64,000 bases of DNA from Clostridiales bacterium (lineage in GTDB: Bacteria; Bacillota; Clostridia; Christensenellales; UBA1242), in contig SVIC01000005.1 in NCBI GenBank assembly GCA_015055515.1, forward strand, positions 20,550 to 84,549, read 5' to 3'. The translations under genes were made by a program, and so were the position numbers. Below the pieces are notes generated by a model. The model was not told the DNA's origin. It worked only from the letters and a program-made list of their open reading frames with translations, and did not search any database. This document shows, one piece after another, positions 1 to 43,700 of this stretch (the stretch's first letter is position 1; every line of letters begins with the position of its first letter).

Positions 1-1
1 C

Positions 2-3000
2 TCGTTCTATCAGAGACAAGATACTACATACACAGGAACATTCGAAGATTGTTATTATCTAGTAGATATTAGAAAGACTCAGTCTGCGATCAATGATCCT
101 GCTGCTCCTATAGAGGTAATATCTGGTGGCACAACTAGTACATTTGTAGATGCGAGATCATTTGTTAATTTCACATTTAGTGATGGAAATAGCGATGATG
201 ATAGTTCTGTATGGTACATGTCACCAAATGGACCAAGACTAATCAATACAATGACCTATACATTCTCACATAGAATATTAGAGGGTGTGTCAGAGAAGAC
301 TAGTGATGATATAGAGCCAGGACACTATACATTTATGGATTATGCAACCATTGTTATCTCAGATGAAGATGGCAAGTATGTACAACGTAAGATTTATATA
401 GCAGACAATGGGGATATGACTGATGATCTTGGTAGAGAGGTAAAAATAGATGAAAATGGTAAATTATCTATTGTAATAGATGCTAATACATCAATTAATA
501 CTAATATATCTTATGAGCAATTCAATGCATTGAATAGATATTCAGCACTAGTATATATCTCTACAGATGGTGATCATGTGTTAGATTTACTTAATATAGA
601 TGCATCTGAATACTTAAGATATACATTTAGTTACACTTACGCAGAAGGATATCAGTATGGATCTAAGATCAATCCATTACTTGTAGATACGGCTGATAGA
701 TTTGTTAACTATATCACTAATTATGCTAAGAGCGAGGATATAACCGATCCATTAGATCCATTAGGTGCAACTGTAAGTGCAAAAGTATTTGGTGGAGAGA
801 ACAAATATATTAGACAAATATCTCATCTGGAATTCGACAGCAGTGATACTAATGTAAATATATTACAAGAGAAGAAAAATGGTATATATCTAAAAGATGT
901 AATCTTCAATGGTGTGTACGATGGAAATAGTCTAAATATTAGCAACTTGAACTTGACAGAAGATGCAGAGACTAAGTTCCATGGATTGTTCAACCAAATG
1001 GGATTAATTGGTGCTACTTCTACTGCAGTAATGAAGAATGTATTTGTGACAACCAGAGAGTACTCTACTACTACTTCTGTGTCAAATGGAATACTTGCTG
1101 GTATTATGTATAATACAGCTATATTGAATGCAAATATTAGCACTCAGTTAAACGATAACAATGTAGTTAATGCTTCTAAGTTTGCTGGTGGTGTAGCAGG
1201 TATTATAGTAGATGGTAAGTTAGTGGATGTGACAGTATCTAATATAAGAGTTATGACAACTATAGAAGATATTATTGTTCCTACTAGTCTTATAAATACT
1301 AACGGGGATTATATGACTTGGACTGTTGCAAATGATGGCGGTACAAGTAATACTCCATCTTCATTTACATTAATTGAATTGGATTATAACAATAATATTG
1401 CTGCAGAGTTGGCTAGCATACTTGCTTCACAGAAGAGTTATTCTTATGCAGGAGCGGTTGCTGGTGTAGTAATCAATTCGGAAGTAAATAATTATACCGA
1501 TATATCTGAAATAAGGTCGGTTAATGACAAAGTAGACCACAGAGGCATAACAGTAGAAGGTGATATCATGATATCGGCCTATAATGCTGGTGGTGTATTC
1601 GGTTATGTGTCAGAGGGTACATATATATACGATGCAGAATTAATTGTACGTAATAATCCTATTGACAACAGTAATACGAATGAAATTCCTAGTTACTCGC
1701 AAATGATTAAGGGAACTAACTTCGTTGGAGGTATAGTTGCCGATAACCGTGGAATATTGAATAGGGCTCAGGTTAATTATCCTATCGCTGATCAGGATGT
1801 GATCGATAGAGCTATATATACTCATAATTCAGGTGGTGCGACAACTAATAAGACCGATACTATATTCTCTACTAATCAAGCAAACGATGGCATGGTGGTA
1901 TCTGTAGGTGGTATTGCTGGTTATAACAGGGGCGGATACATTATAGATAGCTATAATAAGGTAAATGTAACTAATGATAATGCATTAATTGCAGGAGGAA
2001 TTCTTGGTTATGCAGATGATGATACATTTATTAGTTATACATATACAACTGCTAATGTTATCGCTTCAGAGATTATTGGTGGCATTATAGGTTATGCGAG
2101 TGTAGAGAAGACTAATAGTATCACACTAGACAAAGTAATAGCGGTTAATTTATGGGATGATACGGTAAGCAAGATTAAGCTTGATACATTAAAGAAATCG
2201 GGCAAGTTCGGTACAGATAATATAATTATTAGATTACCGGAATTGGGTAATCAACCTATTAAGGATGCTTATGGTGTAACAAATTTGGTAGATGGTGTTG
2301 CTTATAATATACCGTTATCTGATGTTAATGCAAAATTGGATACTTATATAGGTACAGTCATCGGTTTTGCTGGTGTAAGTAGTAAATATGTAGATTATCC
2401 TACTATATTGAATACTAATAAGTATTATATAAACACTAATAAAGTATTTAATATATCTAATGTAATCAGTGCCACATATTCGTTGCTTAATATCAATAAT
2501 GATGTAATGTCATATGATGCGCATTATAATATTGCACATAGAGATTTGTATAAATCTGGTTTGCCAAGATATGATGTATCACAATTCTTTATCGAAGAGG
2601 CAGATCAAGAAAAAGCAACTCATGTATTTGTAGGTGAATATGTAGAGAAGGCCAATAAGCCAGCGAACTACTCTGGTAAATATTATTTACTACAAGCACC
2701 AGAGGGCTATAATATAAATAATGTTTATACAGATTATAATTATGCAGATGATATATTTATGACCAAGGCAAATGATGTAAAAAATACTACTCAGTTGAAT
2801 TTGCAGAACATCTTAGGTACATTCAATAATTTGGGTGAGGCAACCGATGATATTACAGACAAAGAGCAAGCTGAGAATACATCGCAGAACTTATTTGAGA
2901 ATAAATATGTAGAGTATTCGTATGATGGTGCAGGTATAAGAGGTGCTAAAACATGTGAGATAAATGCTGTATTCATTACCAGTACCCAAGATCTTTCCGA

Positions 3001-6000
3001 TCCTGTATGGAAGATGCAGAATAATGGTGTTCTTCCAGAATATGTTATAGGCAGTTATTCTAACTTCGAGATTATAGATTCATCTGCCAAATTAGAGAGT
3101 GCATTGTCTGATAGTAATACAACTAAGACTTATGCATTACTATACAACAAAGTAAATTCGAACAGTCCAATAGAGTACAAAATCTATATTAATGATGAGA
3201 ATTATACTTATAACTATGCTAAGTTCGATAGCGTATTCCGTGGCATACTTGCTGGATACTATTATGATGGCAATGCATTAACTGAAAGCAGTGGAACGAA
3301 TAATATTCCTACAATTAATATATACACTGGTAACTCTAAGGGTATATATTCATTAATTAGCAAGTTGGATTCAGCGATACTTAAGAATATTAACTTCAAT
3401 ATAGTAGTTACAAATGACTCTTCTGATTATATCGATGTATATGGATCGGATGGTGAGTCGTTCGGTTTACTAGCAACATCTATTACTAACTCGGAGATAA
3501 CTAATGTAAATATTACAGTTACTGGTAGTTCTAATAAGGCAATCAATATTAATCTTGTAGATGATGCTATTGGCGAAGGCATGAATAACGTTAAGAACTT
3601 CGGTCTAGTATTTGGTTCATCTATCAATACTACTATGAAGGGTATTTCGGTTAGCTTCGGTACTGATATTAATGTAACTTCCGGTATAGCAACTACAATA
3701 TCTGGAGCAATTGGTTACGCTAGTGGTAATATTATTGAGACAATGTCTGTAAGTGGAGCAAAATTATTTAATATCCAAATAGACAACAATAGAAAAGGCA
3801 ATAATACTGCACTTAATTATGCAACAGTTATTGCGAAGAACTATTACAATAGAATAGATAACTTAAGTAGTGATATAAATACTAAGATAAATTATTATAT
3901 TAATGTTGCTACGACCATTAATACATACGGATTGTATTTCGATGTGTATGGCGGAGGATTATTCGGTTATACATTATCTGGTACACTTGATGGCAGTGAA
4001 TATAAGGCAAGTAGTGCTGTAATAGATCTACCAAGGTCCACATCTAGTAGTCCTAGTAATGCAGTATATTATGGAGGCTTGTCGGGTTATGCTAGTTCAC
4101 ACAAGGTAACAGACACCAATTCTACATTGACTTCTATCACATTTACTGCAGATTATATGCATGCATATGTTGCAGGAATAATTGGTTATGGATTGTCTAT
4201 AGCAATGGGTGATGATAATAACGTAATTACATCCAAGACAGATATTAGTGTAAATCCAAAGGGATCTGGTAACTATTATGTTGCAGGAATAATTGGTTAT
4301 GACAGTGGCTCAATTATTAAGAATACTGTTAATCTGGGCACAATTAATATTGCTGATGATAGAGACAATGAGAGCATAGGTACAGCCAAGGTTTACGCTG
4401 GTGGTATATCAGCTATGGCTATTAATACAGAGTATGACAAGGTAACTTCTTATGCAGATGTTAAGACATTCCAAGCAGATGCCCACACTAGTCTTACTAG
4501 TGACCAAGCTTTGCTGGTTAAGGATGCTATATATTTTGTAGGTGGTATTATCGGTTATGCTAGAAATACCAAGATAAGTGATTTTGCAATGATGGGCGAT
4601 ATCTACTATGTGGTGGATGACGATTCTGCATTGTCAAACTTCTATGGTGGTATTATTGGTTATAGTAGACTTACTTCTATAACACTAAATGGTGGTCAGT
4701 CTTATGCTAGATTCTATGCATCAGATAGATCTCAAGATAAGCGTTATAATACTAATCTATATACTATTGCAGAAGGTTGTACTGCACAGAATACTACGAA
4801 TGTATATTATATCCAAGAATTCTATGCTAAGTACGCCGATCTGTCATATAGCAATAGCGATACATACGTTGATAGTAAGGGCGAGAATGTAAACTTTGCT
4901 CTTTACAATGGTACTCAGGTATTTGCATATCACGATATAGATAGCTTCAATGCCTTAGAGTATGGTAAATTACCAACATTAAACAATCAAGAATATGATA
5001 AAATTACAATAAATAACAATACTGAGGTTGACCTAAAAGACAACTTTGAAGAGTTTTATAACAAGATCAATGCAAAAGTTAATTATATAATTGTAGCAGA
5101 TACGACAACTGAAGTACCACAACCTCAAGAAAATAGTGTATTTGTAGTTAAGCCTAATATAGAAGTTGTATCTACTGGTGACATATTTATGAATACACTT
5201 GGTCCAGACGGAATTATTTCTGGCGTTAAGTTTAATGCATCAGAGGTTAATTGTATTACATCTGCTGATCGTAAGATAACTGGTTACATTCCATTTATGC
5301 ATACTAATAATGGTAGAATATTTAATTCTATTGCATATGGTGAGGTAGAACATGACTTCATAGCAAGTAGCGATAAGAAAGTGCAGATTAGCAGCTTTGT
5401 ATACAACAATAACGGTGATATTGTTCGTAGTGGATCAGTTATTACATATACAGGCAAGTTCGAATTTAATAACATACATACAGAGAAAGATGGTAAATTG
5501 GAGTCTATTACATCAAACTTAAATTTCTCAGGATTTGTATACAATAACAATGGTAGGATTGCAGATTGTTATTCTACTGCAAATATTGATCATATCAATA
5601 AGAACGAAGCTAAGAGAGATGATAATTTTGTAGTAAAAGGTGCTGGTAATACAGCATTGACAACATTTACTACATCTCGGATGAATTTCGCAGGATTGGT
5701 ATACAACCAATATACATCCGATCTAAATAAGTCAAATGATAATATTGGTATATCTGGCTCATTCCATTCGGGTAGATTGCATGATTATGAGACTAATCTG
5801 GTTAGATACTATACATTGAATAGTGAAACATCATTGTATTCGAAGGATACATATTCTAACTTCGGTAACAACAATTATGATAATGGTTATGCCGAGGCGT
5901 TGGAAGATGGTGATATGATGCACTTCATTGACAACGATGATACTGCATACAATATCTGGACAAAGTCTGGTAGTAGAGACATTAACTACAATATGTATTA

Positions 6001-9000
6001 TATTAATGATATTGCTATGACAAGAAAGGTAGAAATCAACGAAGTAAGTATTGTTAGAGCAAATAAATCATTATATGTTGCTACAGGAATTAAGGCAAGG
6101 TTTGACAACGTTGCTACATCAAAGCCTTTTGGTAATAACTATACAGCAGATGATTCAGAAATAACCTATGCTACAGATTCTCCAATTACTAATGGTAAAT
6201 ACTATACAGTGTATACTTTAGAGACAAAGTGGAATGATACAAATAGAAAATATAGTTTGTTCCAAGATGAGTCGGATGCAATAATTGTAGAGACTGCCAA
6301 AGATTTTGCAAGATTAATATTAGATTATTCAGCAACTGCTGTGGATAAGAATGTATACGTTCTAGCAGATGAATTGGATATGACAGGCCTTTGTGGTGGT
6401 AGCGGAATTTATTCTGTTGCTCTTGCAAAAGGCATATATGGTATTGGCGGCTCTGGCACAGGTGTTGTTATTAAGAATTTAACTTTGAATTCTCCACTTG
6501 TTCAGATTAATACTGGCGTAATATCTGGATTCGTATTTGATAATATTCAGGTATCAGATAGCAGTTCTGCTATTGTTGCTAAGAATAGCGGTACTATAGA
6601 ATGTATTACTATTAAAAATACAGCATTTACGGGCGAAGGTAAATACATTGGCCTTGTTGCTAGTACCAATGCTGGCACAATTAGTGGAGTATATGTTACA
6701 AATACATCATTGTCAGTGACAGAGAAAAACATTAATGGTGCAGTCGGAGGTCTTGTTGGTTACAACTCTTCAGGTGCAGTATCTTGCATTTATTATGGCA
6801 ATAGATCTGCTTCTAATAATTCTGGTTTGAGTATGTCAGTAACAGCACTTAGATATAACGTAGGTGGTTTAGTAGGTGAGAATGAAGCAACAATAAATCA
6901 TATTGCTATTGTTAACTCAACAATTTCTGCTCCATCTTCGGTATCTGTTGGTGGTGTTATAGGTTGGAATAAAGAATCATTAACAGGAGTAAGTTCAGCA
7001 GGAATATATGCATTAGTAAATAATACAACAATTGCAGGAGAGAACAATACAGGTGGATTTGTTGGTGAAAACGAAGAACAAATAAAAGGTTGTTCTACTA
7101 AGTTATTCTTAGATTCTGTATCTGTGTCTGGTGTATCAAAGGTTGGTGGATTTGCTGGTATTACTTCGGGAAGTATATCTAATTTATACATATATGATAT
7201 TAATGTAAATGCCACAAAAGATAATGTAGGTGGCGCAATAGGTACTACAACAGGTAATACTTCAGTGGAAATTTCGAATATTAACATTTATACATCCAAT
7301 CACGATATCAAGTCTAACAATGTAAATGCAGGTGGCGTAAACGTTGGTGGATTAGTGGGTAACTCCAGTGCATTGATAGAAGATGTCTTTGTTAGTGATA
7401 TCAATGTCAGGTCTACTAGTACATCTAAAAATGTCAATATTGGTGGTGTAGTAGGATACTCAATGGTAAGTATCGGTAACACAAATTCTTATGTAATAGC
7501 ACGTGGTATTTTGGTTAATGCTAGTGGTAATAATGTAGGTGGTATAGTAGGTTATATAACTGGTTGCGATATTGTCAATGCTATTGTTATGGCCAATGTT
7601 GGATCAAAGGCAAATGTACTTAATCAGATCACTTCAGTTCTTGGTGTCAATGTAGGAGGTATAGCAGGATTAGCAAATGATTCGGATATATCCAACTCAG
7701 TTGCAGAGAATATTACTTTATCTGGATATTATAAGGAGAATGAGAACAACGACAATGTATCTAATGTTGGTGGTATTGTAGGTAGTCTTAAGGATGGTAG
7801 TGTGAATAATGTATTAGTTACAGCCACATCTAGTGTGACCAACTCAATTACCACAACCGCAGGTTCTAATGATAATTCTAGATATATTGGCGGATTAGTA
7901 GGTTATCTTGATAATGCAACAAGTGGTACAAATGCAACTAGTGGCTCACTTAAAGATTGTTCTGTAGTTAATACTTATATCAATACTCCAAATAGTGATT
8001 ATGTAGGAGGATTGGTAGGTGGATATAATGGTCCATCATCTGTTACAGAGAATTCATTCAATAAATTCACTGGAATTAAAGAAGAAAATCTTAAGATAGA
8101 TTATTCGGCTACTAATACAACAATAGGTGTCAACATATCTGCTAGAAGTAATGTTGGCGGTGTTATTGGCTCTATTGTAAATGATACCAAGTGTACAATT
8201 ACAATTTCAAATATAACATTAAAAACAATAAACATAAATGCTTCTGGTACCTGTATAGGTGGTATCATTGGTGAGTTAATAAATGATAAGAGTTATATAT
8301 ACAAGGTTTCTATCACTGGTGGCGAAAATGAAGATTCTTATTCTAGAATATCTTCCTCATACAAGGTTTACGCTGGTATGGAATATAAAAATACTGGTGT
8401 GGGGGGTATTGTAGGCTATACTAAATCAACACTAATCCAGGGAGAGAATGCCAATAACGATTATCAAATCTCTGTATCAAATACCATTATAGATTCTGCA
8501 TTAATGTACACAGGCGGAATTGTTGGTCACGCAGTTGGCGGTTTAGCTTCTGGCGTAACAGTTGGCTTATCTGCTTCAGATGTAGAAAAAAAGACAGCTT
8601 TTGTTCTAAAGAATGTAACAATCAAATCATCTACTAGTTACATAGGTGGTGTGGCAGGATTTGTCAAAGGAGATGTAAATGGTACATATTATTCCAAGAA
8701 CGTAACTATCAATTCTACATCGGGATCTAAGAAAGTATCTAAGATAGGTGGATTATTTGGAGAACTCAATGGAACATTCCTAAATGGTAGTAGTGCATCC
8801 ACTTACTATGTGTTCTCTGATACCATAAAGATCACAGTAGACAATGGACAGTATAGTTTTGATGTTGAAAATCCTAGTACAATTACAAGAGGTATAGGTG
8901 GACTTATAGGTGTATTCAAAATGACAGACTCTATGGGCTCTATCGGTGCACAATCTATTAAGTTAGAAGAATTAACAATGGATGCGGCAGGCGAGAATAT

Positions 9001-12000
9001 TGGTGGCGTATATGGGTATATTGAGAAATCAGATAATACTGGAAAGGTTAATCTGACGTCTGGATATTTATATAATAGTACCATCAATGCTAGTGGAAAC
9101 AGTCAATATGTAGGTGGTGTAGCTGGTCATGTTATAGATGTAAATATGGTTAATTCGATTGTTAACTTAATTACAATTAATGTTTCTGGTAATATGGGCC
9201 ACTATGTTGGTGGTATTGTAGGATATACCAATGGCGATATTACATCTGCTAGTGTATCAGATTGGGGCAATGGTGTTAATATAACATCTCCTGGAATATA
9301 CTTAGGTGGTGTAGCTGGAAGATGCGATGGAACTATAAATGGTGCACATATGCTTAGTCCTGTCACTATAGTTTCTACATTCTCGGGCAAGTTTACTGTA
9401 TACAATGGTACACAAGGCGTAGGACAAACAGAAATATATGATGCTTATATAGGTGGTGTGGCTGGTTATGTAAACGCTATTGGAGAAAAAGACATAACAG
9501 TGCAAAATATTAAAATTACAGCTAGCAAAGGCTTAGTTGGTGGCGTAGCTGGTTATGTTGTAGGCGATTACAAAGCTATTACCAATGTGTATGGTGTAAA
9601 ACTATCTACATCAGGACACTCTGTGGGTGGTGTAGTAGGCTATCTTGGCGGAAATATGGTAAATGGCAGTCAAAGTAGCAAATCATCAATTCTTGTAGTT
9701 GGAGTAACAGAGTATGATACCATCTCTGGTGATAGCTATATTGGTGGTGTTGTAGGTGGTGGACAGGCATTAAGGTATTACGATGGTGGAGATTCTCATT
9801 ATATCCACAATAGGAACACTTCTCAGACATTTATGGCTGTATCCAACACTGATATGACATTTATTAATATTTACAAGGTAATGATGGGAGTTGCGACAGA
9901 TCCTACACCAAATGCTATGATTACTAATGAATATACATACAAATTTATGGATAAGTTCGAGGATGTAATTGCAGAAGTTAAATGTAGTGATATGACTGCA
10001 ACCAAATTCCAGACATACCTTAATATGAATGCAAAGTCGGTGCAGTTGGTTGCTAATGATAATAAGGTATATATGTTCGGTCAAGATTATAAATATAATA
10101 CAACTCACTTATATAACATGTATCTAAGCCTTGCCGAGAGATTGGGTGCTGATATTAGTATTAAATTCAAAGATGTAGATGCCAAAGATGGTACTAAATA
10201 TAAAGATGTAATGAAAGATATATCGGATCAAACAATAAAAAGAGATGATATAATATCTGTTACAATAGCAGAGCAATCATCTTTTGGTACTATAAATAGT
10301 GGTGGTACTTCTACATATTATATATCTGTGGATGATATGATTATCACTGGTGCAAATAATTATGTGGGTGGCGTCACAGGCTTTGCTACATCAGATCAGA
10401 TAATAGTAGATAACCAGGGTCACGTTATTAATACCAAGGTTACTGGTAAGAACTATGTAGGTGGCGTCATAGGTTATGCTAATAATGCTAGTGCTTTAGC
10501 ACAAGGAACAGTAAAATCTATTTCAGTAGAAGGAACGAATTATGTTGGAGGTTTTGTAGGTTACAATAATGGATCAGTCAATGCTTCTCCATATTCAACA
10601 AAGATTGTTGTCACAGGTAATGACTATGTTGGTGGTTTGGTTGGATTGAACAAGACAGTATTAAATGGAACTATGCAGGATAGTTCTATATCTGGCAATA
10701 ATTATGTTGGTGGATTGGCTGGGTATCAGCTAAACAATATAGCTACTAATAACTTAACAGCTGGTATAATTAATTCTACAGTAATAGGAAGGTCAAATGT
10801 AGGAGGAATTGTAGGAAAACTGTATAGTGAGAATCAATCCATCACTATCGGTAGTATGTTTGCAAAATATACAGCAGTTAAAGGATCTTCTAATGTTGGT
10901 GGTCTAATCGGAGAAGCTGATGTGTATCATTTATACAATAGTGAAGGTTACTATGTTGGTGTATATGAGAGTACAGTAAAATCTGAAGAAAATATTACAA
11001 ATGATTATTCAGCTGTAGGTGGAATTATCGGACACGCCAAGATAAACACAAGCGAATCAAATAAAGCAATTTTCATAAAGCATGCAGATGTTGTAAAAAC
11101 TGCAGTATCTGGAATGTCTGGTGTGGGGGGCATAATTGGAGTAATGGAAGGATATTATGCTATTGAACAAAGTAATATTGTTGGAGATAAACTTGGAGAA
11201 TCTCAGATATTGGGCAACACTGCAGTGGGTGGTGCAATAGGAGTATTACAAGATTCTGCGGGTTGTTCACCTGCGAAGTTATATCACTTAAGTATTATAA
11301 ATGTAATGGATTATGGAATAGGCAATGCGAATACCAATAATGTTGGTGGCGCAATAGGTTATATGAATAGTGATACAAATATGGCTCAGTTACAAGGTTC
11401 ATTTAATATTGTTAATGGTGTCCATACCTCACCAATAGCGCTAGGTTCTGCTGAAATAAATAACAACGCAATAGGTACAGAATATGATAAATATACTTAT
11501 TCATCTTTTGGATCTAATACGAAATTAGCTATCATAGGAAACTCTAACGTAGGTGGAGTTGTAGGAGCAATGGGTAAAATTGTTGAAGAAGATGATATAG
11601 ACGAAGATTTGTCAAACAATACTATTGAGGTAAATAATGCAGGATTTAACATAACAAATATCTCAATCAATGGAACAACCAATGTAGGTGGATTATTTGG
11701 ATCTCTAGATTGTATAGATGTGTCAGAATTGATTATTGATTATAAGACAGAAGGTAAGACAACTAATTTAATGGACGCTGTTAGCATTACTTGTAATGGA
11801 GAGAATGCTGGTGGTATTGCAGGCAAGGTTTCTAATTCGATCTTTAGATCTGGTCACATTAAGACTTATTCTGTAATAGTTAATGCCCAGGGCAATAATG
11901 CTGGTGGCGTTATAGGTGTGTTAGAAAACAGCAGATATTATATAGAGACGGCTGTATTGCCACGTATTAATAGTATTGCCGATAATGTAGGAGGTATTAT

Positions 12001-17982: not shown

Positions 17983-20900
17983 ATGAAAGGCAACAATATT
18001 ATTAAGCAATTATCAAAAGTTTTAACATTAGTAGTTTTGGTTTTTGCATTCCTTTGCTCTCCTATCACAAAGTTGATTACTAAAGTTGGCAAAGTATTTG
18101 CTGACAATTCTAGCAGTCAATTGGACGACGTGGAAGGCGCAAATATCCAAGTAGAAGGATTTAACAATACAGGAGAGGTTGGCAAACCTGTGTATTTGCC
18201 AAGAGTTTTTGTGGCTGGTAGTGAATACGGTCCAAAGACAAATGCCGATGCTGGTGTAATATACGAGGTATGGGATTCGGCTAATAAGACAAAACTTACA
18301 GAAGAGATCGATGGTGACTCAACAAATGGTTACTATTTCACACCGGAGAAATCTGGAGTGTATACTCTTAAGATCTATTCTAATGTAGATGGCAAATTGA
18401 GTACAGTGGTAGAGGATTTGCAAATCAATGTATCTAAGTCCGATGTAACAATGACTGTAGCTAGTTCTGCAGTAGTAAAATATGGCGATGATGCATATGC
18501 GTTACCATCTAGATTGGCTTTGTCTAGTATTACAGACCCAGCAGAAGGTGAGATTTTTGCTGTTCCTGGTCCAACAGTGGAAGGTGAAGCAGAAGGAAAC
18601 GTTATTGTTACTTGTATTCCTGCGGGATCTACTGGTGATGGATCAACTGGCAATCCAGCATATACTATGAAGAGAAATGAGATAAAGAATGCTGCTAACG
18701 AGGTAGTAGGCTCTTTCTATACATTTAATGAAGCAGATATAATTGCTATTAGAGGTGCTGCAAAATACGGTACTTATACATTCAAGTACACTTATGTATC
18801 TAATGGCATAAAGCTAGGCGATTCTGTAATCAAGACTTGTGAAGTTACTAGCGACGCAAGCTTTGCAGATGATATTAAGTTAGAGATTTCTTCATTAGTT
18901 TCATCTACTGAGCTTACTTATGGCGAGATTGGCACATGGTATACTTTGCCTACAGCAACTGTTGTAGATGCTAATTCTGGTTCTAGCGATGCAGTTCCAT
19001 CTATACTTGAAATCAAGGTTACACCTAGCACATCTATAACTGGTGCTACTATAGAGCAAGATGGATATAAGTTCAAGGCAGACAAACTAGGCACATATAT
19101 GATTACTTATGTGGCTACTATTCCATATACAGATAAGACTGTAGAGAAGAACTTCCTAGTAGAATTAAAAGATGAGACAGCTCCTACAATTATGTTTGTA
19201 GATAGTTATGTTAAGGCAGATATTATGACAAATGAGAGCCTTGATTCAGAGGATGAATTTGTTGAGTATTTGAAGGAAAATAAAGATGCGACTGACACAA
19301 TTAAGTCAGTATATGTATTAGGTGCAGATGGTGTAAATATTGATATTCCAGCAATATATGCTAGCGACAATTCTGCAACTGGCGAGTATACACTTACTAG
19401 AAAGATTACTTATGCTTCTAATAGCCAAAGTACTACATTTAACGAAGAATTGAATAAAGTAAAACAACATAAGGTTACTGAACCTGGTGTGTATACTATT
19501 ACATTCGAGGCTACAGATGGTAATGAGCGTAAAGCAGTAGCAAGTAAGACAATTGCTGTTGTTAGTGAAGACATTCTTAAGAACTGTGCTAGTACTTTAC
19601 AAGGTACAACTGTTGCAGATCTAGAAGATGTTGATAAGCCAAGCATTGTTATTGGCTCTGTTCCTAGAAGTATTGCATCAAATGAGACTCTTACTTTTGC
19701 TATGCCTACTACAGCAGACTCTATTGCTAAGGCATTAAGTGATGTGACAGGATTCGGTAGATTGAAGACATCTACTACTTGGTCAAGCAATGTTGATCTT
19801 ACTGCTAAGTTGGTAGCTTACAATGCTAGTACAAATGCTTTTGTTGCTGAACATCCATTAAAAGATGAGGATATTACATCTGATAATAAGTATTCTATAG
19901 ATATGTCAGATGCTAAGTTGGATGCATTCAAGACAGCAATTGGTAACACAGCGGTATATTTCAGAGTAGAATATTCTGCTATGACAGATTGGATGACAGC
20001 GTTATCACTTGCTCCTGCTACTGATAGATCTACTAAGATTGAATATGTAGACGTAGAGGATACTACTGCTGCAACAATTGCAATAGCTGAGGCTAACGGA
20101 TTATTTGTTGCATTAGAGAATGATAACTTTGCAGCAATTAAGGCTACATTGGCTAAATATGGTATTACAGCAGATGATGTGGATGATTTTGTACTAGAAG
20201 ACAATGGTATGATCAAGATTACTACTGCAGGTGGCGACAAGTATATCGCTCCATTCAACCAATATTCATCTGATAATAAGATGATGGTGAAGTTGCCACA
20301 ATTGTTAATTCAAGATGCTGAAGATATGACATCATTATCTATTACAGCTTCTATTGCAGATGAATTGGGTAATAGTAAAACATTGGTTGCTAGTTATGAT
20401 AGCGTATTGAATGGTGTATACAAGGTGTCACTAGGTGAGGTAGAACTTGCTAATGCTGGTCAATATACAGTTACAGTAAAAGCAGTGGATAAGGGCGGTA
20501 ATATATCTGTATATTCTTATGCAATTATGGTAAATGACACTACTGCTCCATCAGACGTAGTGTTGGATGCAGAGATTGCTGGCGAGAGTACTATTACTAC
20601 AACTTACTACACTGGTCCATTTATTGAATTCCCTAGTGCTAAGGTTATAGACAATACTAATCCAGATAGCAAATATACAGTAGAATTAGTATCTTATCCA
20701 AAGAATGCTAGAATTACTCAAAATATCTATAACAAGGGTTTTGCTACACTTACAGCAGGTACTTATGAGATTAAGTATACATGTGATGATGGCAATGGCA
20801 ATGATCCTCTTGTAAAGACTTATACTCTAGAAGTAAAAGAAAAAGATTATACTAAGATCGAAGTGAACGAAGATTTATTTAATGCAAACTTCAGCTATGA

Positions 20901-38219: not shown

Positions 38220-39164
38220 ATGAAAAAGAGAGTAATATCTGCAACATTCGTGTTCGTAGTAATGGCTATTATGATAGCATCAAGACTACTTACACCATAC
38301 GTATTTGATGTATGTGTGCTAATTGCAGGAACTATAGGAATATTAGAGATAGTAAAAGCTTTGGCGAACAAAGGCAAAGTCGTAAATGAGAATATGGCAA
38401 GCACATATATGTTTGTATTATATGTGGGCATTATATATGCAATACTAAGCAAGGGTACATTGCTACAATTATTATTATATTTTGCATGTGTACTAGTTGC
38501 TTATTTTATATTAAATATTTTGTTGTCTCTTAGCTTTAAGGATGCAACAAAGACAGAGATGTTAAGATCCAATTATACGGGAACTTATAGAAGATATGTA
38601 GTTCTAAAGGCATTTAGGAGTGTAGGGCTATTAATATATCCAGCACTACTATTTGCACTACTTATATTAATCAATCATATGGATGCATTCTTTGTGTCCA
38701 AGACTATTAGTAGCGTTGCTGTTCTAATTGACTTTATAATAATAGCAACTTTTGTATGTGCTACATTTACAGATACATTTGCTATGCTGATAGGATCAAA
38801 GGTAAGAGGTCCAAAGTTGTGTCCAACTATTAGTCCTAACAAGACTATATCAGGTGCAATTGGCGGACTAGTTATGGGTATAATAGGAGTATTGGGTGTG
38901 TACATGTTATATAGTCTAAATGCGGGCTTTGTAGAAGTGATAGAGTTATTAGGTGTTACATGGGTACCTATTGTAGTATTTGGCATATTTGCTCCTATCT
39001 TAACTCAGGTGGGTGATATCGTGGCTAGTATGATAAAAAGAAAGTGTGGTATCAAAGATTTCAGCAATCTTATTCCTGGCCATGGCGGAATAATGGACAG
39101 AGTGGATGGACTAATTTTTGCGAATTTATGTGCATTCATAGTGACATTAATTTGTTTGTTTTAA
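38220..39164 (+). CDS. cdsA: phosphatidate cytidylyltransferase
   Basis: SPNKTISGAIGG and IKRKCGIKDFSNLIPGHGGIMDRVDG signature. Polytopic. Confidence 0.92.
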   Translation: MKKRVISATFVFVVMAIMIASRLLTPYVFDVCVLIAGTIGILEIVKALANKGKVVNENMASTYMFVLYVGIIYAILSKGTLLQLLLYFACVLVAYFILNILLSLSFKDATKTEMLRSNYTGTYRRYVVLKAFRSVGLLIYPALLFALLILINHMDAFFVSKTISSVAVLIDFIIIATFVCATFTDTFAMLIGSKVRGPKLCPTISPNKTISGAIGGLVMGIIGVLGVYMLYSLNAGFVEVIELLGVTWVPIVVFGIFAPILTQVGDIVASMIKRKCGIKDFSNLIPGHGGIMDRVDGLIFANLCAFIVTLICLF

Positions 39165-39249
39165 TCATTAATTAAGATATATTGCAATATATATAAGTGT
39201 CGGCTTTTATATATTGCATTTTTGAATATAGATATATTTAGGAGAATAT

Positions 39250-40344
39250 ATGATATATAATTTGTCTAGTTTTGTAAATGTATTGTCTACAATAGGTGGT
39301 ATATTGTTGGCGATAATACTATTTGCTGTATTGATATTTATACACGAATTGGGTCACTATACTGCCGGAAAAATATTCAAGTTCAAGATTAATGAGTTTT
39401 CGCTTGGATTTGGCAAGGCATTGTATACTAAGAAAAAAGCAAATGGAGAGGTTTTCTCTATTAGGCTTGTTCCATTAGGAGGATACTGTGCTTTTGAAGG
39501 AGAAGAAGGCGGTAGCGATGTCGAGGGTGCATTCAATAAGCAAGCGTGGTGGAAGAGATTAATAGTCTTATTCTCTGGTGTCTTGTTTAATTTCATATCG
39601 GCTATTATTGTATCAATACCACTATTAATGATTATGGGTGAGGCTACACCTATTATCACGTCATTTGCTGATAATACACCTAACCATATAGAGTATAATA
39701 TGGAGACACTGCAAGAAGGCGACATAATAATGGCTATAGATGGTGTTAGGCCTAGTTATACCAACGGTGGCATGTCATTGCTTCCAAGACGTCAAGGCGA
39801 CACTCCATATACCATTACAGTAGACAGAGATGGTGTGTTGGTTGATATAAATGTTACTAATATTGTTGTGGGAACTGATGAAGATGGTAACGATATATAT
39901 GGTATTGGAATTAATGGGTATGAGAATAAGAAATTAGGATTTTTCCATAGTGTCGCTCGTAGTGTACCATTTTGCTTCGAGATGTCAGTGGATTGTATAA
40001 GAATACTGGGCGAATTATTTACAGGGCAGACGCGTGTATCTGACCTGGGTGGTCCAATAGCCACAATAGGTGCAATATCCACATCGGTATCATCTCCTAA
40101 TGGGATAGGATTGCAGGCGTTACTATTATTATTTCCAGTGATTGCTGTTAATCTAGCGGTATTTAACTTTTTGCCATTACCAGCACTAGATGGAGGAAGG
40201 GCGGTATTTGTTATCATTGAGGGAATTAGGCGAAAACCGATTAATCCTAAGATAGAGAATGCGATACATTCTGTAGGAATAATGGTGCTGTTTGCATTTG
40301 TTATTTTTGTAGACTTTTTACAGATATTTAAGATAAGGTTATGA
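39250..40344 (+). CDS. rseP: RIP site-2 metalloprotease RseP/RasP (M50)
   Basis: HELGHY zinc motif, central PDZ-like region and a NFLPLPALDGG motif. Confidence 0.92.
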   Translation: MIYNLSSFVNVLSTIGGILLAIILFAVLIFIHELGHYTAGKIFKFKINEFSLGFGKALYTKKKANGEVFSIRLVPLGGYCAFEGEEGGSDVEGAFNKQAWWKRLIVLFSGVLFNFISAIIVSIPLLMIMGEATPIITSFADNTPNHIEYNMETLQEGDIIMAIDGVRPSYTNGGMSLLPRRQGDTPYTITVDRDGVLVDINVTNIVVGTDEDGNDIYGIGINGYENKKLGFFHSVARSVPFCFEMSVDCIRILGELFTGQTRVSDLGGPIATIGAISTSVSSPNGIGLQALLLLFPVIAVNLAVFNFLPLPALDGGRAVFVIIEGIRRKPINPKIENAIHSVGIMVLFAFVIFVDFLQIFKIRL

Positions 40345-41930
40345 GAAAGTTTTTAGATTATTTACGTAATACTAATGATAAATATAATGATATTTTAATT
40401 ACAAATATAGAGTACTGTGTGGATGATAATGTTTTAGAATTCAAGGTGCAATACGTTTGTGATAATTTTTCCGATGCTGATAAGTTGGCTCTTGAAAAAG
40501 ACATCCGATCTTATATAGATGCAGACACTACTATTGATATAAAATGTAGAAAGTATTTTATAGACAAAGACATAATAAAGGATTATGTTGTAAGATATAT
40601 CCAAGATAAATATCCAAGTGTGAGCAATGATGAGTTGGAGAAGAATGTTGCTATAAACCTAACTGAAGATAATGTATATCAAATCTCATTAGTCTTAGGG
40701 GTAGAGAGTTTGGCTCATTTAACAAAGAATGATTTTGAAAATGAAATAGTTGACTATTTGCAAATGGTGACTATGGAGGAGTATGAGATAATCCTGATTG
40801 CAGATACATCTGAGAGTGCTGATGCGCAATCCATACTAGATGAGAGGTATTCTCTTCTTAATAACTCAGATATGCTTAAGAGAATAGATTATGAGCCTAT
40901 AGAGGTCTCTGGACTGGAGAAGATAATAGGGGATATAGATATAGATTATGTGTATCCTATTGCAACGCTATCTGAGGGTAAAGTTGCGTGCGTGGGCGAA
41001 GTTGCATTCTACAAAGTGTCGGAATATGAGAGTAGATTCAAAAACAAAGATGGTAGTGCGAAGATTGGCAAGAGAGTAACTTTTGTATTAAGAGATGGTA
41101 GTGATAAGATATCTTGTACATATTTTCCTACTTTTGCAGATTCAGAAAAGGTAGATGCTATAAATAATGGTGATAAGATTGCGGTCGTTGGAGAATTATC
41201 TGATGATGAGAATAGAGGGCGGAACTTAAGAGTAAGATCTATAGCGAAATGTGATTTTATCGCATTCAAGGAGCCAGAGAAGGTCATAGAATTGAAAACG
41301 GTTAATGCTGAATATAAGCATATATTTCCTAAAAGTTATGAACACAAGACTCAGTCCGACTTTCTAAAAGAAGCAGAGAATATTGATACATATCTTATGG
41401 ATAATACCGTTGTAGTATTTGATCTAGAGACAACGGGATTAAATGTAAATGAATGTGAGATAATAGAGATTGGCGCAGTTAAGATGGTTGCAGGTCAGAT
41501 TGTAGAGACTTTTGATACATTGATAAAGCCAAAAGAGCCAATACCTGAAGATGCAACGAAGGTAAATAATATTACCAATGAGATGGTGGCAAATTGCATG
41601 AGTATTGATCAAGTATTCCCTGATTTTTATAAATTCATAGATGGTGCTGTAATTGTGGCGTATAATATAGAGTATGATTACAATGTATTAAAGGCATATG
41701 GCGATAGAAATGGTTATGTTATTTCCAATAGGCAGGTGGATGCGTTGAAGCTAGCAAAGCGTGCATTGCCACAATATAAGAGCCATAAATTAGGCAAGGT
41801 GGTAAAGGTCTTAGGTATACAATTAGACAATGCTCATAGGGCGCTATTTGACACTATAGCCACTGCAGAGGTACTGAAATCTTGTCTTAATATGTTGTCA
41901 GATGAAGATAAAAAACAGTTGTTGTCATAA
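40341..41930 (+). CDS. PolC-like N-terminal/OB-fold/3'-5' exonuclease protein lacking PHP and polymerase domains
   Basis: Exo I VVVFDLETTGL, Exo II VAYNIEYDYNVL and Exo III HRALFDTIATAEVL (epsilon/PolC type). Preceded by an OB-like block (VACVGEVAFYKV...KIAVVGELSDDENRGRNLRV). ATGA-coupled to rseP and directly upstream of rimP, where polC sits in Bacillus. Confidence 0.75.
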   Translation: MRKFLDYLRNTNDKYNDILITNIEYCVDDNVLEFKVQYVCDNFSDADKLALEKDIRSYIDADTTIDIKCRKYFIDKDIIKDYVVRYIQDKYPSVSNDELEKNVAINLTEDNVYQISLVLGVESLAHLTKNDFENEIVDYLQMVTMEEYEIILIADTSESADAQSILDERYSLLNNSDMLKRIDYEPIEVSGLEKIIGDIDIDYVYPIATLSEGKVACVGEVAFYKVSEYESRFKNKDGSAKIGKRVTFVLRDGSDKISCTYFPTFADSEKVDAINNGDKIAVVGELSDDENRGRNLRVRSIAKCDFIAFKEPEKVIELKTVNAEYKHIFPKSYEHKTQSDFLKEAENIDTYLMDNTVVVFDLETTGLNVNECEIIEIGAVKMVAGQIVETFDTLIKPKEPIPEDATKVNNITNEMVANCMSIDQVFPDFYKFIDGAVIVAYNIEYDYNVLKAYGDRNGYVISNRQVDALKLAKRALPQYKSHKLGKVVKVLGIQLDNAHRALFDTIATAEVLKSCLNMLSDEDKKQLLS

Positions 41931-42035: not shown

Positions 42036-42071
42036 TTAAAGTGGGTTTCAGGTAAACTCACTTTAATTTTT
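42036..42071 (+). promoter_or_regulatory. leader terminator/attenuator hairpin between the promoter and rimP
   Basis: 13-bp stem TTAAAGTGGGTTT/AAACTCACTTTAA with one G-U pair and a 5-nt loop, followed by TTTTT, 16 nt before the rimP ATG. Confidence 0.55.
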
Positions 42072-42087: not shown

Positions 42088-42549
42088 ATGAAAGAAAGTG
42101 TTGTAGATAGGGCATATGAAGTTATAGAGCCAATATGTGTAGAATTAGGCTATCACTTGGTCGAGGTTACATACAAGAAAGAAGTGGGTGGCATGACACT
42201 ATGGGTATGTATAGACAAGGATGGTGGCATAGATATTAATGATTGCGAGAGATTGTCAAGGGCGTTGGATGAACCACTGGATGATAAAGATATCACGAAC
42301 GGGTCTGCTTATAATCTGAATATTACATCATATGGACTAGATAGAGCATTCAAGACCGATTATGATTTCAATAAACACTTGATGCAAGAGATCGTAATAA
42401 AGTTCTACAAGCCATGGATGGGCAAAAAAGAAATAAGAGCCATCTTATTGAAGTATAATAAAGATGCTATAACCATTAAGTACAATGATACAGATTACGA
42501 TTTGCAGATCAAGGATACTGCACTAATACAAAAATATATAGAGTTTTAA
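42088..42549 (+). CDS. rimP: ribosome maturation factor RimP
   Basis: Size, position upstream of nusA, and an N-terminal EPI...LG..LV.V pattern. Confidence 0.88.
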   Translation: MKESVVDRAYEVIEPICVELGYHLVEVTYKKEVGGMTLWVCIDKDGGIDINDCERLSRALDEPLDDKDITNGSAYNLNITSYGLDRAFKTDYDFNKHLMQEIVIKFYKPWMGKKEIRAILLKYNKDAITIKYNDTDYDLQIKDTALIQKYIEF

Positions 42550-42566
42550 TTTAAGGAGAAAATAAC

Positions 42567-43700
42567 ATGATTAATAAGGATTTCTTTCTAGCATTAGAGG
42601 AATTAGAAGCACAAAAAGGAATAAATAAAGAATATTTTATAGATGCACTAGAGTCTGCATTGACTAGCGCTTATAAGAAGAATTTTGGAGAGGGCAGAAA
42701 TGCACTAGTAAAATTGAATCCTGATAACAATAGTATTAAGGTGTATTCATATAAATTAGTTGTAGAGGAAGTGACAGATCCAGATAAGGAGATAAGCCTA
42801 GCAGACGCTAAGTTAATTAAGAAATCTGCAAAGATTGGTGATGAGATAGATAGAACAGAGGTTACTCCTAAGAACTTTGGTAGAATTGCTGCTCAGACTG
42901 CGAAGCAAGTAGTAATGCAGAGGTTGCGTGAGGCAGAGCGTGTTAAGATCATGGGCGAGATAAATACAAAGCAAGATGAATTAATCACCGTAGTTGTAAG
43001 AAGAATAGAGGGCGACAATGTGTATTGCGATCTTGGTATTACAGAGTGTGAAGGTGTCTTGGGACCAAAGGATCGTATACCTAACGAGAAGTTCGTACTA
43101 AATTCTAGAATAAAAGTATATGTTAAGACTATTAGAGAGTCATTCAATATGCCTTATGTGCAGTTGTCTAGGACAAATGTGGGTTTTGTAAAGAAGTTGT
43201 TCGAGCTAGAAGTTCCAGAGATAGCCAATGGCGAAGTTGTTATTCATAATATGGTTAGAGAGGCTGGTTATAGAACTAAGCTTGCAGTATCTTCTCCTAA
43301 TCCAACATTAGATGCAGTAGGTGCATGTGTAGGTAACAAGGGTATGAGAGTGGCATCTATCATATCAGAGTTAAAGGGAGAGAAAGTGGATATTGTTCCA
43401 TATTCAGAGAATCCAGCAGAATTTATAGCAGGAGCATTATCTCCAGCAACTATACTTCATATTGAATTGAATTATAATGACAAGACATCTTTAGTAATAG
43501 TTCCAGATGATAAGTTGTCTTTGGCAATTGGTAAGAGTGGTCAGAATGTAAGACTTGCAGCAAGACTTACTGGTTGGAAGATAGATGTTAAGGCAAAGTC
43601 TGCAGTTCCATCATTGAACTTCGATGATGTAGAAGGTGCAGATGAATCAGATGTTAAGGATTTGTTCGAAGATAATAGTGCTTTTGAGGACTTGGAATAG
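42567..43700 (+). CDS. nusA: transcription termination/antitermination factor NusA
   Basis: S1 and KH domain motifs (GRIAAQTAKQVV; VGACVGNKGMRV; IGKSGQNVRLA). Confidence 0.95.
   Translation: MINKDFFLALEELEAQKGINKEYFIDALESALTSAYKKNFGEGRNALVKLNPDNNSIKVYSYKLVVEEVTDPDKEISLADAKLIKKSAKIGDEIDRTEVTPKNFGRIAAQTAKQVVMQRLREAERVKIMGEINTKQDELITVVVRRIEGDNVYCDLGITECEGVLGPKDRIPNEKFVLNSRIKVYVKTIRESFNMPYVQLSRTNVGFVKKLFELEVPEIANGEVVIHNMVREAGYRTKLAVSSPNPTLDAVGACVGNKGMRVASIISELKGEKVDIVPYSENPAEFIAGALSPATILHIELNYNDKTSLVIVPDDKLSLAIGKSGQNVRLAARLTGWKIDVKAKSAVPSLNFDDVEGADESDVKDLFEDNSAFEDLE

Follow-up and report, generated by a model that had tools for sequence, protein, structure and literature searches.

PolC is regarded as a defining feature of low-GC Gram-positive bacteria and as their essential replicase. 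Surveys of bacterial replicative polymerases recognise three systems, based on DnaE1 only, on PolC and DnaE1 (in Clostridia), or on PolC and DnaE3 (PMC3919608; PMC12926913). Both surveys drop truncated sequences and fragments lacking the polymerase site (PMC3919608; PMC12926913), and the 2026 survey was based on complete genomes, which are lacking for the uncultured clade considered here (PMC12926913). A truncated form of PolC is not described in these polymerase surveys (PMC3919608; PMC12926913), and nothing relevant was found in the literature on PolC together with Christensenellales. We analyzed a window of 64,000 nucleotides (positions 20550 to 84549 of the 88.5-kb contig C18, SVIC01000005.1) from the genome of Clostridiales bacterium GCA_015055515.1 (hereafter the source genome, G000; 1.07 Mb in 23 contigs, 91.7% complete). 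In this window, the position of polC is occupied by a gene encoding only 529 amino acids (aa). Sequence comparisons leave little doubt that this short gene is a polC truncated in place, with a single origin followed by vertical inheritance. On the whole, we think it more likely than not that the truncated PolC has been kept as a clamp-tethered proofreader beside DnaE.

In Escherichia coli, proofreading is performed by DnaQ (epsilon), a DEDDh exonuclease that is a polypeptide separate from the DnaE-type polymerase; a clamp-binding motif adjoins the nuclease domain of epsilon. The non-canonical DnaQ of mycobacteria is a clamp-binding protein that shares proofreading with the PHP domain (PMC11348249). 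In Bacillus subtilis, the exonuclease of PolC is able to correct DnaE errors in trans (PMC12926913).

The short gene has an ATG start and, stop codon included, spans positions 40341 to 41930 of the + strand. A first-pass annotation of the window, made from the sequence alone, had reported an open reading frame (ORF) of 529 aa with a PolC-like layout in the place expected for polC; its coordinates were exactly reproduced and the observation was confirmed as a whole. The gene and its parts are as follows.

40341..41930, + strand: whole gene, attributed to a truncated PolC (N-terminal domain, OB fold, linker, and DEDDh exonuclease; Pfam, NCBIfam, profile alignment, and AlphaFold2 model).
40341..40865, + strand: PolC-type N-terminal domain, residues ~1–175, two alpha/beta subdomains (hhalign and AlphaFold2 model).
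40896..41255, + strand: OB fold, residues ~186–305, counterpart of the OB domain of PolC (PF01336 and hhalign).
41256..41396, + strand: linker, residues 306–352, replacing the N-terminal half of the PolC PHP domain (hhalign and AlphaFold2 model).
41352..41366, + strand: candidate beta-clamp-binding motif QSDFL, Q338 to L342 (family consensus Q-x-[NDS]-L-F).
41397..41900, + strand: DEDDh 3'-5' exonuclease domain, residues ~353–520 (PF00929; D361, E363, D446, H499, and D504).

The exonuclease domain was identified by Pfam (RNase_T, PF00929, residues 358–512, E = 2.5e-35, 122.9 bits for a cut-off of 24), and the three motifs initially quoted for it, VVVFDLETTGL, VAYNIEYDYNVL, and HRALFDTIATAEVL, are all present in the translation. 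The OB fold was detected at residues 242–301 (PF01336, E = 2.3e-6) and in 31 of 35 family members. The 529-aa protein matched neither PF02811 (PHP) nor PF07733 (Pol III alpha) and, in agreement with the first-pass annotation, Pfam and NCBIfam revealed no PHP or polymerase domain; the protein terminates ~10–25 residues past Exo motif III. The best NCBIfam models were the two PolC equivalogs, NF001688 and TIGR01405, which aligned with the exonuclease part alone (model positions ~413–595) and below their cut-offs (173.2 and 163.8 bits versus 873 and 1043). Scores were also below cut-off for the E. coli-type DnaQ equivalog (TIGR01406/PRK05711; 75–78 bits versus 196–223). In terms of sequence families, the protein is thus a member of the DEDDh superfamily lying outside the PolC and E. 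coli-type DnaQ families. The closest solved structures detected by sequence search included the exonuclease of Thermotoga maritima PolC (2p1j, E = 2.8e-31 with the single sequence and 3.7e-60 with the family profile) and full-length PolC (9qpc). Full-length PolC was also the top fold match in the PDB (9qpc_A, E = 2.5e-18 over 388 columns) for the AlphaFold2 model, which had a mean predicted local distance difference test score (pLDDT) of 88; the epsilon-containing structures 5fkv and 5m1s were among the structure-search matches. The second N-terminal subdomain of the model has an alpha-beta-beta-alpha-alpha-beta order, which agrees with the KH-like fold predicted for the N-terminus of PolC (PMC3919608).

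The relationship of the N-terminal part to PolC was assessed by comparing a profile of 35 homologues of the short protein (A1) with a profile of 10 full-length PolCs (1416 to 1474 aa) that belong to related families within the order (A2). The profiles formed a single collinear alignment pairing residues 22–529 with PolC residues 40–608 (probability of 100%). The whole-length score is dominated by the exonuclease, and the comparison was therefore rerun with hhalign on cut pieces. Residues 1–340 alone aligned collinearly with PolC (3–319 with 22–354, E = 2.2e-16), as did the N-terminal domain alone (residues 1–195; 3–171 with 22–192, E = 1.1e-6, probability of 91%), and the OB fold alone (residues 196–310) matched PolC residues 235–342 (E = 1.2e-11). 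Controls for the N-terminal domain, consisting of the reversed profile, eight column shuffles, and a DnaE target, gave E-values of 0.09 to 0.86 and scores of 12 to 21, compared to 55.9 for the real alignment. The Pfam families of the PolC N-terminus had no match at E ≤ 0.1 in any of the 35 family members. Because the Pfam models fail, homology of this domain rests on the profile-profile comparison, its controls, genome scans, and one NCBIfam match. In the scans, a profile restricted to the N-terminal 345 residues (A3) had its best match in the N-terminal part (OB region) of the PolC ORF in three of five genomes encoding full-length PolC. The NCBIfam match was that of one relative (G036) to positions 58–324 of the PolC model (E = 9e-9). 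The suggestion that the N-terminal 330 aa might be unrelated to PolC can therefore be set aside: the N-terminal 340 aa are homologous to PolC, in the same order and position, and the requested alignment with PolC residues ~1–620 is collinear over residues ~22–608. By hhalign, linker residues 303–352 had no likeness to the PHP segment present at the same place in PolC. A possible PHP relic in the linker ('Y..V.PEPY' opposite 'VVQAFPDAY' of PolC in the full alignment) was considered too weak to be claimed.

The position of the gene is also that of polC. The order rseP-(ispG)-X-rimP-nusA-L7Ae-infB is kept in relatives, and slot X contains full-length polC in 10 families and a gene of ~510–540 aa in six, in either form and never both. 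The six short-form families inspected for gene structure thus carry the truncated gene at the same position, which answers the question of its conservation raised by the first-pass annotation. Between rseP and X lies ispG, as verified in one relative; it has been lost from the slot in the source genus. In each of the 24 same-genus genomes, the short gene was found together with a DnaE ORF of ~1200 aa, and full-length PolC was absent. The sample was extended to 301 Christensenellales-like genomes, all but two of which are at least 90% complete with contamination of at most 5%. PolC was above the family cut-off in 145 genomes and fragmented in one more, ~150 genomes had an exonuclease-level match and a DnaE-level match only, and five had no match at E ≤ 1e-30. 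The distribution was all-or-none, with no mixed family. The short form was assigned to 17 of the 39 sampled families (f1, 8, 11, 13, 16, 17, 19, 20, 22, 23, 25, 28, 30, 33, 34, 37, and 39), from the E-value class for those beyond the six inspected, and full-length PolC to the others (f2–7, 9, 10, 14, 15, 18, 21, 24, 26, 27, 29, 31, 32, 35, 36, and 38, plus f12 in a separate scan).

Phylogenetic trees of RpoB (an independent marker), of DnaE, and of the region extending from the N-terminus to the exonuclease, all unrooted, each separated the two states by one branch with an SH-aLRT support of 100%. PolC is the general rule elsewhere in Firmicutes (PMC3919608; PMC12926913), which makes the short form derived, and a single truncation is enough to account for it. 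Replacement of PolC by a pre-existing paralog was ruled out, as whole-genome scans with profile A3 detected no separate gene of ~520 aa in the five genomes scanned that encode full-length PolC. A search with the same profile retrieved 1178 clusters (50% identity) at E ≤ 1e-3 and 372 at E ≤ 1e-30, and the best 150 matches were all proteins of ~500–540 aa or fragments. The close relatives are metagenome-assembled genomes of uncultured Christensenella, Christensenellaceae, Clostridia, and 'Candidatus Scatosoma' from the guts of humans, ruminants, rabbits, and chickens. Two side observations were made in this sample. Genome G089 (family f35, full-length PolC) contains a second ORF, of 1135 aa (C1:1189615-1191750), matching positions 613–1361 of the PolC model (483 bits); this ORF may represent an additional polymerase paralog of the PolC type that lacks the N-terminus and the exonuclease, roughly the mirror image of the short protein. 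In the RpoB tree, the branch of the source genus is very long (0.99 changes per site, for terminal branches of 0.02–0.14 within the genus), a sign that evolution was strongly accelerated at the base of this lineage of small genomes (0.8–1.4 Mb).

No PolC-type polymerase part was detected in the source genome, in the 24 same-genus genomes, or in ~150 other short-form genomes of the order. The ORFs of ~1200 aa have the DnaE architecture, with a contiguous PHP domain, Pol III alpha, fingers, helix-hairpin-helix (HhH), and a C-terminal OB fold, and the DnaE encoded by the nearest relative scores above the cut-offs of the NCBIfam equivalogs for DnaE (1450 versus 1260 bits). These ORFs are not a detached half of PolC, since the DnaE tree places orthologous DnaEs in the relatives that encode full-length PolC. 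All DnaEs aligned, 12 from the short-form clade and 10 from the full-PolC clade, had the complete set of nine metal ligands in the PHP domain (HxH, D, H, E, H, C, and DxH). Such an intact signature is termed an 'active' PHP proofreader in the 2026 survey (PMC12926913), and the PHP site of these DnaEs looks active by this reckoning. DnaE also has a conserved internal clamp-binding motif, GQxS[LMF]F. According to these searches DnaE, of the DnaE1 type, is the only C-family polymerase of the clade and must therefore replicate both strands; the clade probably replicates with DnaE alone.

The source assembly itself yielded no dnaE with the PF07733 profile or by tblastn with the DnaEs of relatives. 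The closest relative (71% identity for the short gene) encodes a DnaE of 1235 aa in the order dnaE-pfkA-...-pyk, with dnaE-pfkA located ~6.5 kb upstream of pyk. Contig C10 of the source genome begins inside pyk (C10:1-477) and continues with the same downstream genes as the relative, and the six genes upstream of pyk, including dnaE and pfkA, are all missing from the source assembly. Because the contig edge falls in pyk and the six upstream genes are all absent, dnaE and pfkA are apparently missing through an assembly gap, and the idea that the source genome lacks any C-family polymerase was dropped, the edge of C10 lying just downstream of the place of dnaE in the nearest relative. The genome search for polC and dnaE called for at first pass thus revealed no full-length polC, a dnaE in relatives, and an apparent gap in the source assembly. 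The genes dnaN (C16:52811-53896), polA, and dnaX (C13:19692-20756) were all found in the source genome. Regarding the last, DnaX has a gamma-like length of ~383–418 aa in most same-genus genomes, 497–505 aa in three of them, and 524–706 aa in families with full-length PolC; the C-terminal tail of tau, which couples polymerase and helicase, may have been lost in the most reduced genomes.

The catalytic residues D361, E363, D446, H499, and D504 show no variation among 35 sequences with only 23–59% identity to the query. The proportions of nonsynonymous (pN) and synonymous (pS) differences were measured against the two nearest sequences available as DNA. The synonymous sites were saturated (pS of 0.77–0.98), which precluded computation of a dN/dS ratio and limits the statement to pN being far below pS. 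Values of pN were 0.065–0.16 for the exonuclease, 0.19–0.26 for the OB fold, and 0.27–0.40 for the N-terminal domain, a pattern that indicates purifying selection along the whole protein, strongest on the nuclease.

The linker is mostly coil in the AlphaFold2 model (pLDDT of 70–92), and Y325, P330, and Q338 are near-invariant in the 35-sequence alignment. The bacterial beta-clamp-binding pentapeptide is QL[SD]LF. A motif of this type, Q-x-x-[LMIFV]-[FLM], is present in the linker of 110 of 112 homologues, at a median distance of 24 residues before the first catalytic Asp and for a background of 0.054 per 45-aa window; its commonest forms are QSNLF, QENLF, QINFL, and QSDLF. At this pre-exonuclease site, none of the full-length PolCs of the order has a QxxLF motif. 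Their QLSLF-type motifs are located at the extreme C-terminus, in the part removed by the truncation. This distribution suggests that the truncated protein re-acquired a route to the clamp through a new motif in its linker.

The comparison with known systems may be summarized as follows. The short protein shares with PolC (NF001688/TIGR01405) its slot and descent, and its N-terminal domain, OB fold, and DEDDh exonuclease succeed one another as they do in PolC, but it is devoid of both PHP halves, of the palm, thumb, fingers, and HhH/clamp-binding domain, and of the C-terminal QLSLF; it has a QxxLF motif in the pre-exonuclease linker that PolC lacks, and it cannot be a polymerase. Like E. coli DnaQ, it is a DEDDh exonuclease separate from a DnaE-type polymerase. 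In contrast to DnaQ, it was carved independently from PolC and is not a dnaQ orthologue, its motif lies N-terminal to the nuclease rather than C-terminal as in epsilon, it has no C-terminal alpha-binding peptide, and it is extended by 340 residues at its N-terminus; unlike E. coli alpha, the DnaE with which it would work keeps an apparently active PHP site. The closest functional model for our proposal is the mycobacterial DnaQ, a clamp-binding DEDDh co-proofreader in a DnaE1-only replisome with an active PHP proofreader (PMC11348249). The mycobacterial protein belongs to another lineage and has no PolC N-terminal or OB domain, and its function has been demonstrated whereas that of the short protein is predicted (PMC11348249). 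Finally, the DEDDh exonucleases of Firmicutes (PRK06807/PRK08517, DinG-exonuclease, and the DEDD-GIY-YIG protein PRK07883) resemble it in the exonuclease (E = 1e-34 to 1e-46), but the short protein stays below the cut-off of each of these families, and their members lack the PolC N-terminal domain and OB fold and are located outside the polC slot. The truncated protein descends from PolC and probably works like epsilon or the mycobacterial DnaQ.

We propose the following scenario. The ancestor of about half of the Christensenellales-like order very probably lost the PHP and polymerase parts of PolC by internal deletion of the N-terminal half of PHP and removal of everything past the exonuclease. 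What was left, the N-terminal domain, OB fold, and DEDDh exonuclease, was kept as a protein of ~520 aa, vertically inherited under purifying selection, which would serve as a separate proofreading subunit. This protein would be tethered to the beta sliding clamp (DnaN) beside DnaE by QxxLF, a motif gained in the new linker, the OB fold and N-terminal domain may help to hold DNA (single-stranded DNA or primer-template) or replisome partners, and the DEDDh site would clear mismatched 3' ends of DnaE in trans, alongside the PHP nuclease of DnaE. That the protein is an active nuclease, binds the clamp, and contributes to the fidelity of replication is inferred, while its homology, position, distribution, conservation, and motif were observed. 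Of the three readings offered at first pass, namely a split PolC, a stand-alone proofreader derived from polC, and a relic next to a relocated full-length polC, the second reading is the one that fits the evidence, since PolC homology, slot, distribution, and conservation agree with it, the function itself being predicted. The trans-acting, clamp-tethered role is slightly favored in our judgment. Several points weigh against it. The protein of the window has QSDFL (residues 338–342) instead of the consensus Q-x-x-L-F, and the conserved linker QxxLF is suggestive of clamp binding without amounting to proof. The clamp-binding motif of the mycobacterial DnaQ is reported to be dispensable for its antimutator effect (PMC11348249). 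The PHP site of DnaE looks active, in which case a second proofreader would not be strictly needed, and the proposed role does not account for the retention of the N-terminal domain and OB fold. All of the genomes are metagenome-assembled, the dnaE of the source genome itself was not observed but placed in an assembly gap, and the case is built from sequence.

Among the alternatives, the one that survives best, although we regard it as rather unlikely, is that the protein is a general 3'-5' exonuclease acting in DNA repair, recombination, or RNA and oligonucleotide turnover, kept as the only DEDDh nuclease of the cell. It is indeed the only RNase_T-family protein of the source genome, its OB region resembles RNase YhaM/Cbf1 (9o7t, E = 5e-7), DnaE already has an apparently active PHP proofreader, and many clamp-binding proteins work in repair. 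However, its ancestry is that of a replicative proofreader, the PolC-specific N-terminal and OB domains have been kept, the polC slot is held across 17 families, and the clamp-binding-type motif would put the protein at primer ends. It is less probable that selection acts on the N-terminal domain and OB fold, as a replisome organizer binding DnaX, single-stranded DNA, or primase, the nuclease being secondary. Hundreds of diverged homologues have retained the 340 N-terminal residues, for which pN is below pS, and the role of the N-terminus in PolC itself is not established (PMC3919608). Nevertheless, conservation is by far highest in the exonuclease (pN of 0.065 versus 0.27 for the N-terminal domain), where the catalytic residues are invariant, and most same-genus DnaX proteins lack the tau tail for polymerase binding.

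A decaying relic on its way to becoming a pseudogene, or an artefact of assembly or frameshifting, is very improbable. The gene is the remainder of a much larger one, and six-frame scans revealed stop codons near the match in some relatives, mostly the gene's own stop. Against this, a frame of 500–540 aa has remained open in hundreds of lineages with saturated synonymous sites, none of the catalytic residues varies, a conserved motif has been newly gained, and the 157 nucleotides that separate the gene from rimP leave no room for a downstream remnant. An assembly break removing the rest of polC, as envisaged at first pass, does not account for the short gene, since it is located in mid-contig and more than 100 homologues are 500–540 aa long. 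The least probable alternative by our estimate is a split or relocated PolC whose polymerase half or full copy lies elsewhere. A single gene can be missed in a genome that is 91.7% complete in 23 contigs, but no PolC polymerase part was found in 24 same-genus genomes (several in 2–8 contigs and 95–99% complete) or in ~150 more (at least 90% complete), where the only long C-family ORFs have the DnaE architecture, score above DnaE cut-offs, and are orthologous to the DnaE of full-PolC relatives; the two corresponding first-pass readings, split PolC and relic beside a relocated full-length polC, were abandoned for want of any PolC polymerase part in the source genome or its short-form relatives.

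The neighborhood of the truncated polC in the window comprises the following elements.

39250..40344, + strand: rseP, upstream neighbor, the stop of which overlaps the start of the truncated polC.
42036..42066, + strand: terminator-like hairpin (13-bp stem, then a T run) in the spacer that separates rimP from the truncated polC.
42088..43700, + strand: rimP and nusA, the conserved downstream neighbors of polC (ORF listing and gene order in relatives).

The ATG of the short gene overlaps the TGA of rseP in an ATGA sequence (40341–40344), and the two genes are probably translationally coupled. Downstream, the 157-nucleotide spacer is followed by rimP (42088), nusA, ylxR, the L7Ae-like gene, and infB. 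The overlap with rseP and the place before rimP-nusA, both noted at first pass, were seen in the sequence. The hairpin may end the rseP-polC transcript, serve as an attenuator in the rimP-nusA leader, or both. The first-pass annotation was also right in locating proS ~15 kb downstream (56971–58644) but its statement that proS has moved was Bacillus-centered, as ispG sits between rseP and polC in the order Christensenellales. Other families have the order uppS-cdsA-(dxr-like)-rseP-ispG-polC (compared slots, L019:7384-8427 and L019:9573-10769; dxr-like gene identified by eye), whereas the source genus lacks the dxr-like gene and ispG at this location (window positions 38220–40344, cdsA-rseP). 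The source genome also contains giant ORFs of 8428, 9072, 5359, 3999, and 3930 aa, in C18 and in other contigs; the ORF of 8428 aa extends into the start of the window (window positions 1–14959; C18:10225-35508).

Together, these results add a fourth situation to the three systems recognized so far: in more than 150 near-complete genomes belonging to 17 families of one order of Clostridia, the PolC polymerase has been secondarily lost and the N-terminal domain, OB fold, and exonuclease have been retained. This constitutes a natural experiment on the N-terminal domain and OB fold of PolC in the absence of the polymerase, shows a path from a cis-acting proofreader to a putative trans-acting subunit, and provides, with QxxLF, a concrete motif for the question of clamp binding. 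Whether 17 of the 39 sampled families, a deep clade of gut Clostridia rich in species, gave up PolC, a replicase held to be universal and essential in Firmicutes, and returned to a DnaE1-only replisome and recycled its remnant as an epsilon-like, clamp-bound proofreader is, in our assessment, evenly poised. If true, the alpha-epsilon-beta arrangement of E. coli would have been independently re-invented, and these abundant commensals of the gut would be naturally devoid of the target of PolC-directed antibiotics and are predicted to be intrinsically insensitive to PolC inhibitors, the class to which ibezapolstat belongs (PMC12592400).

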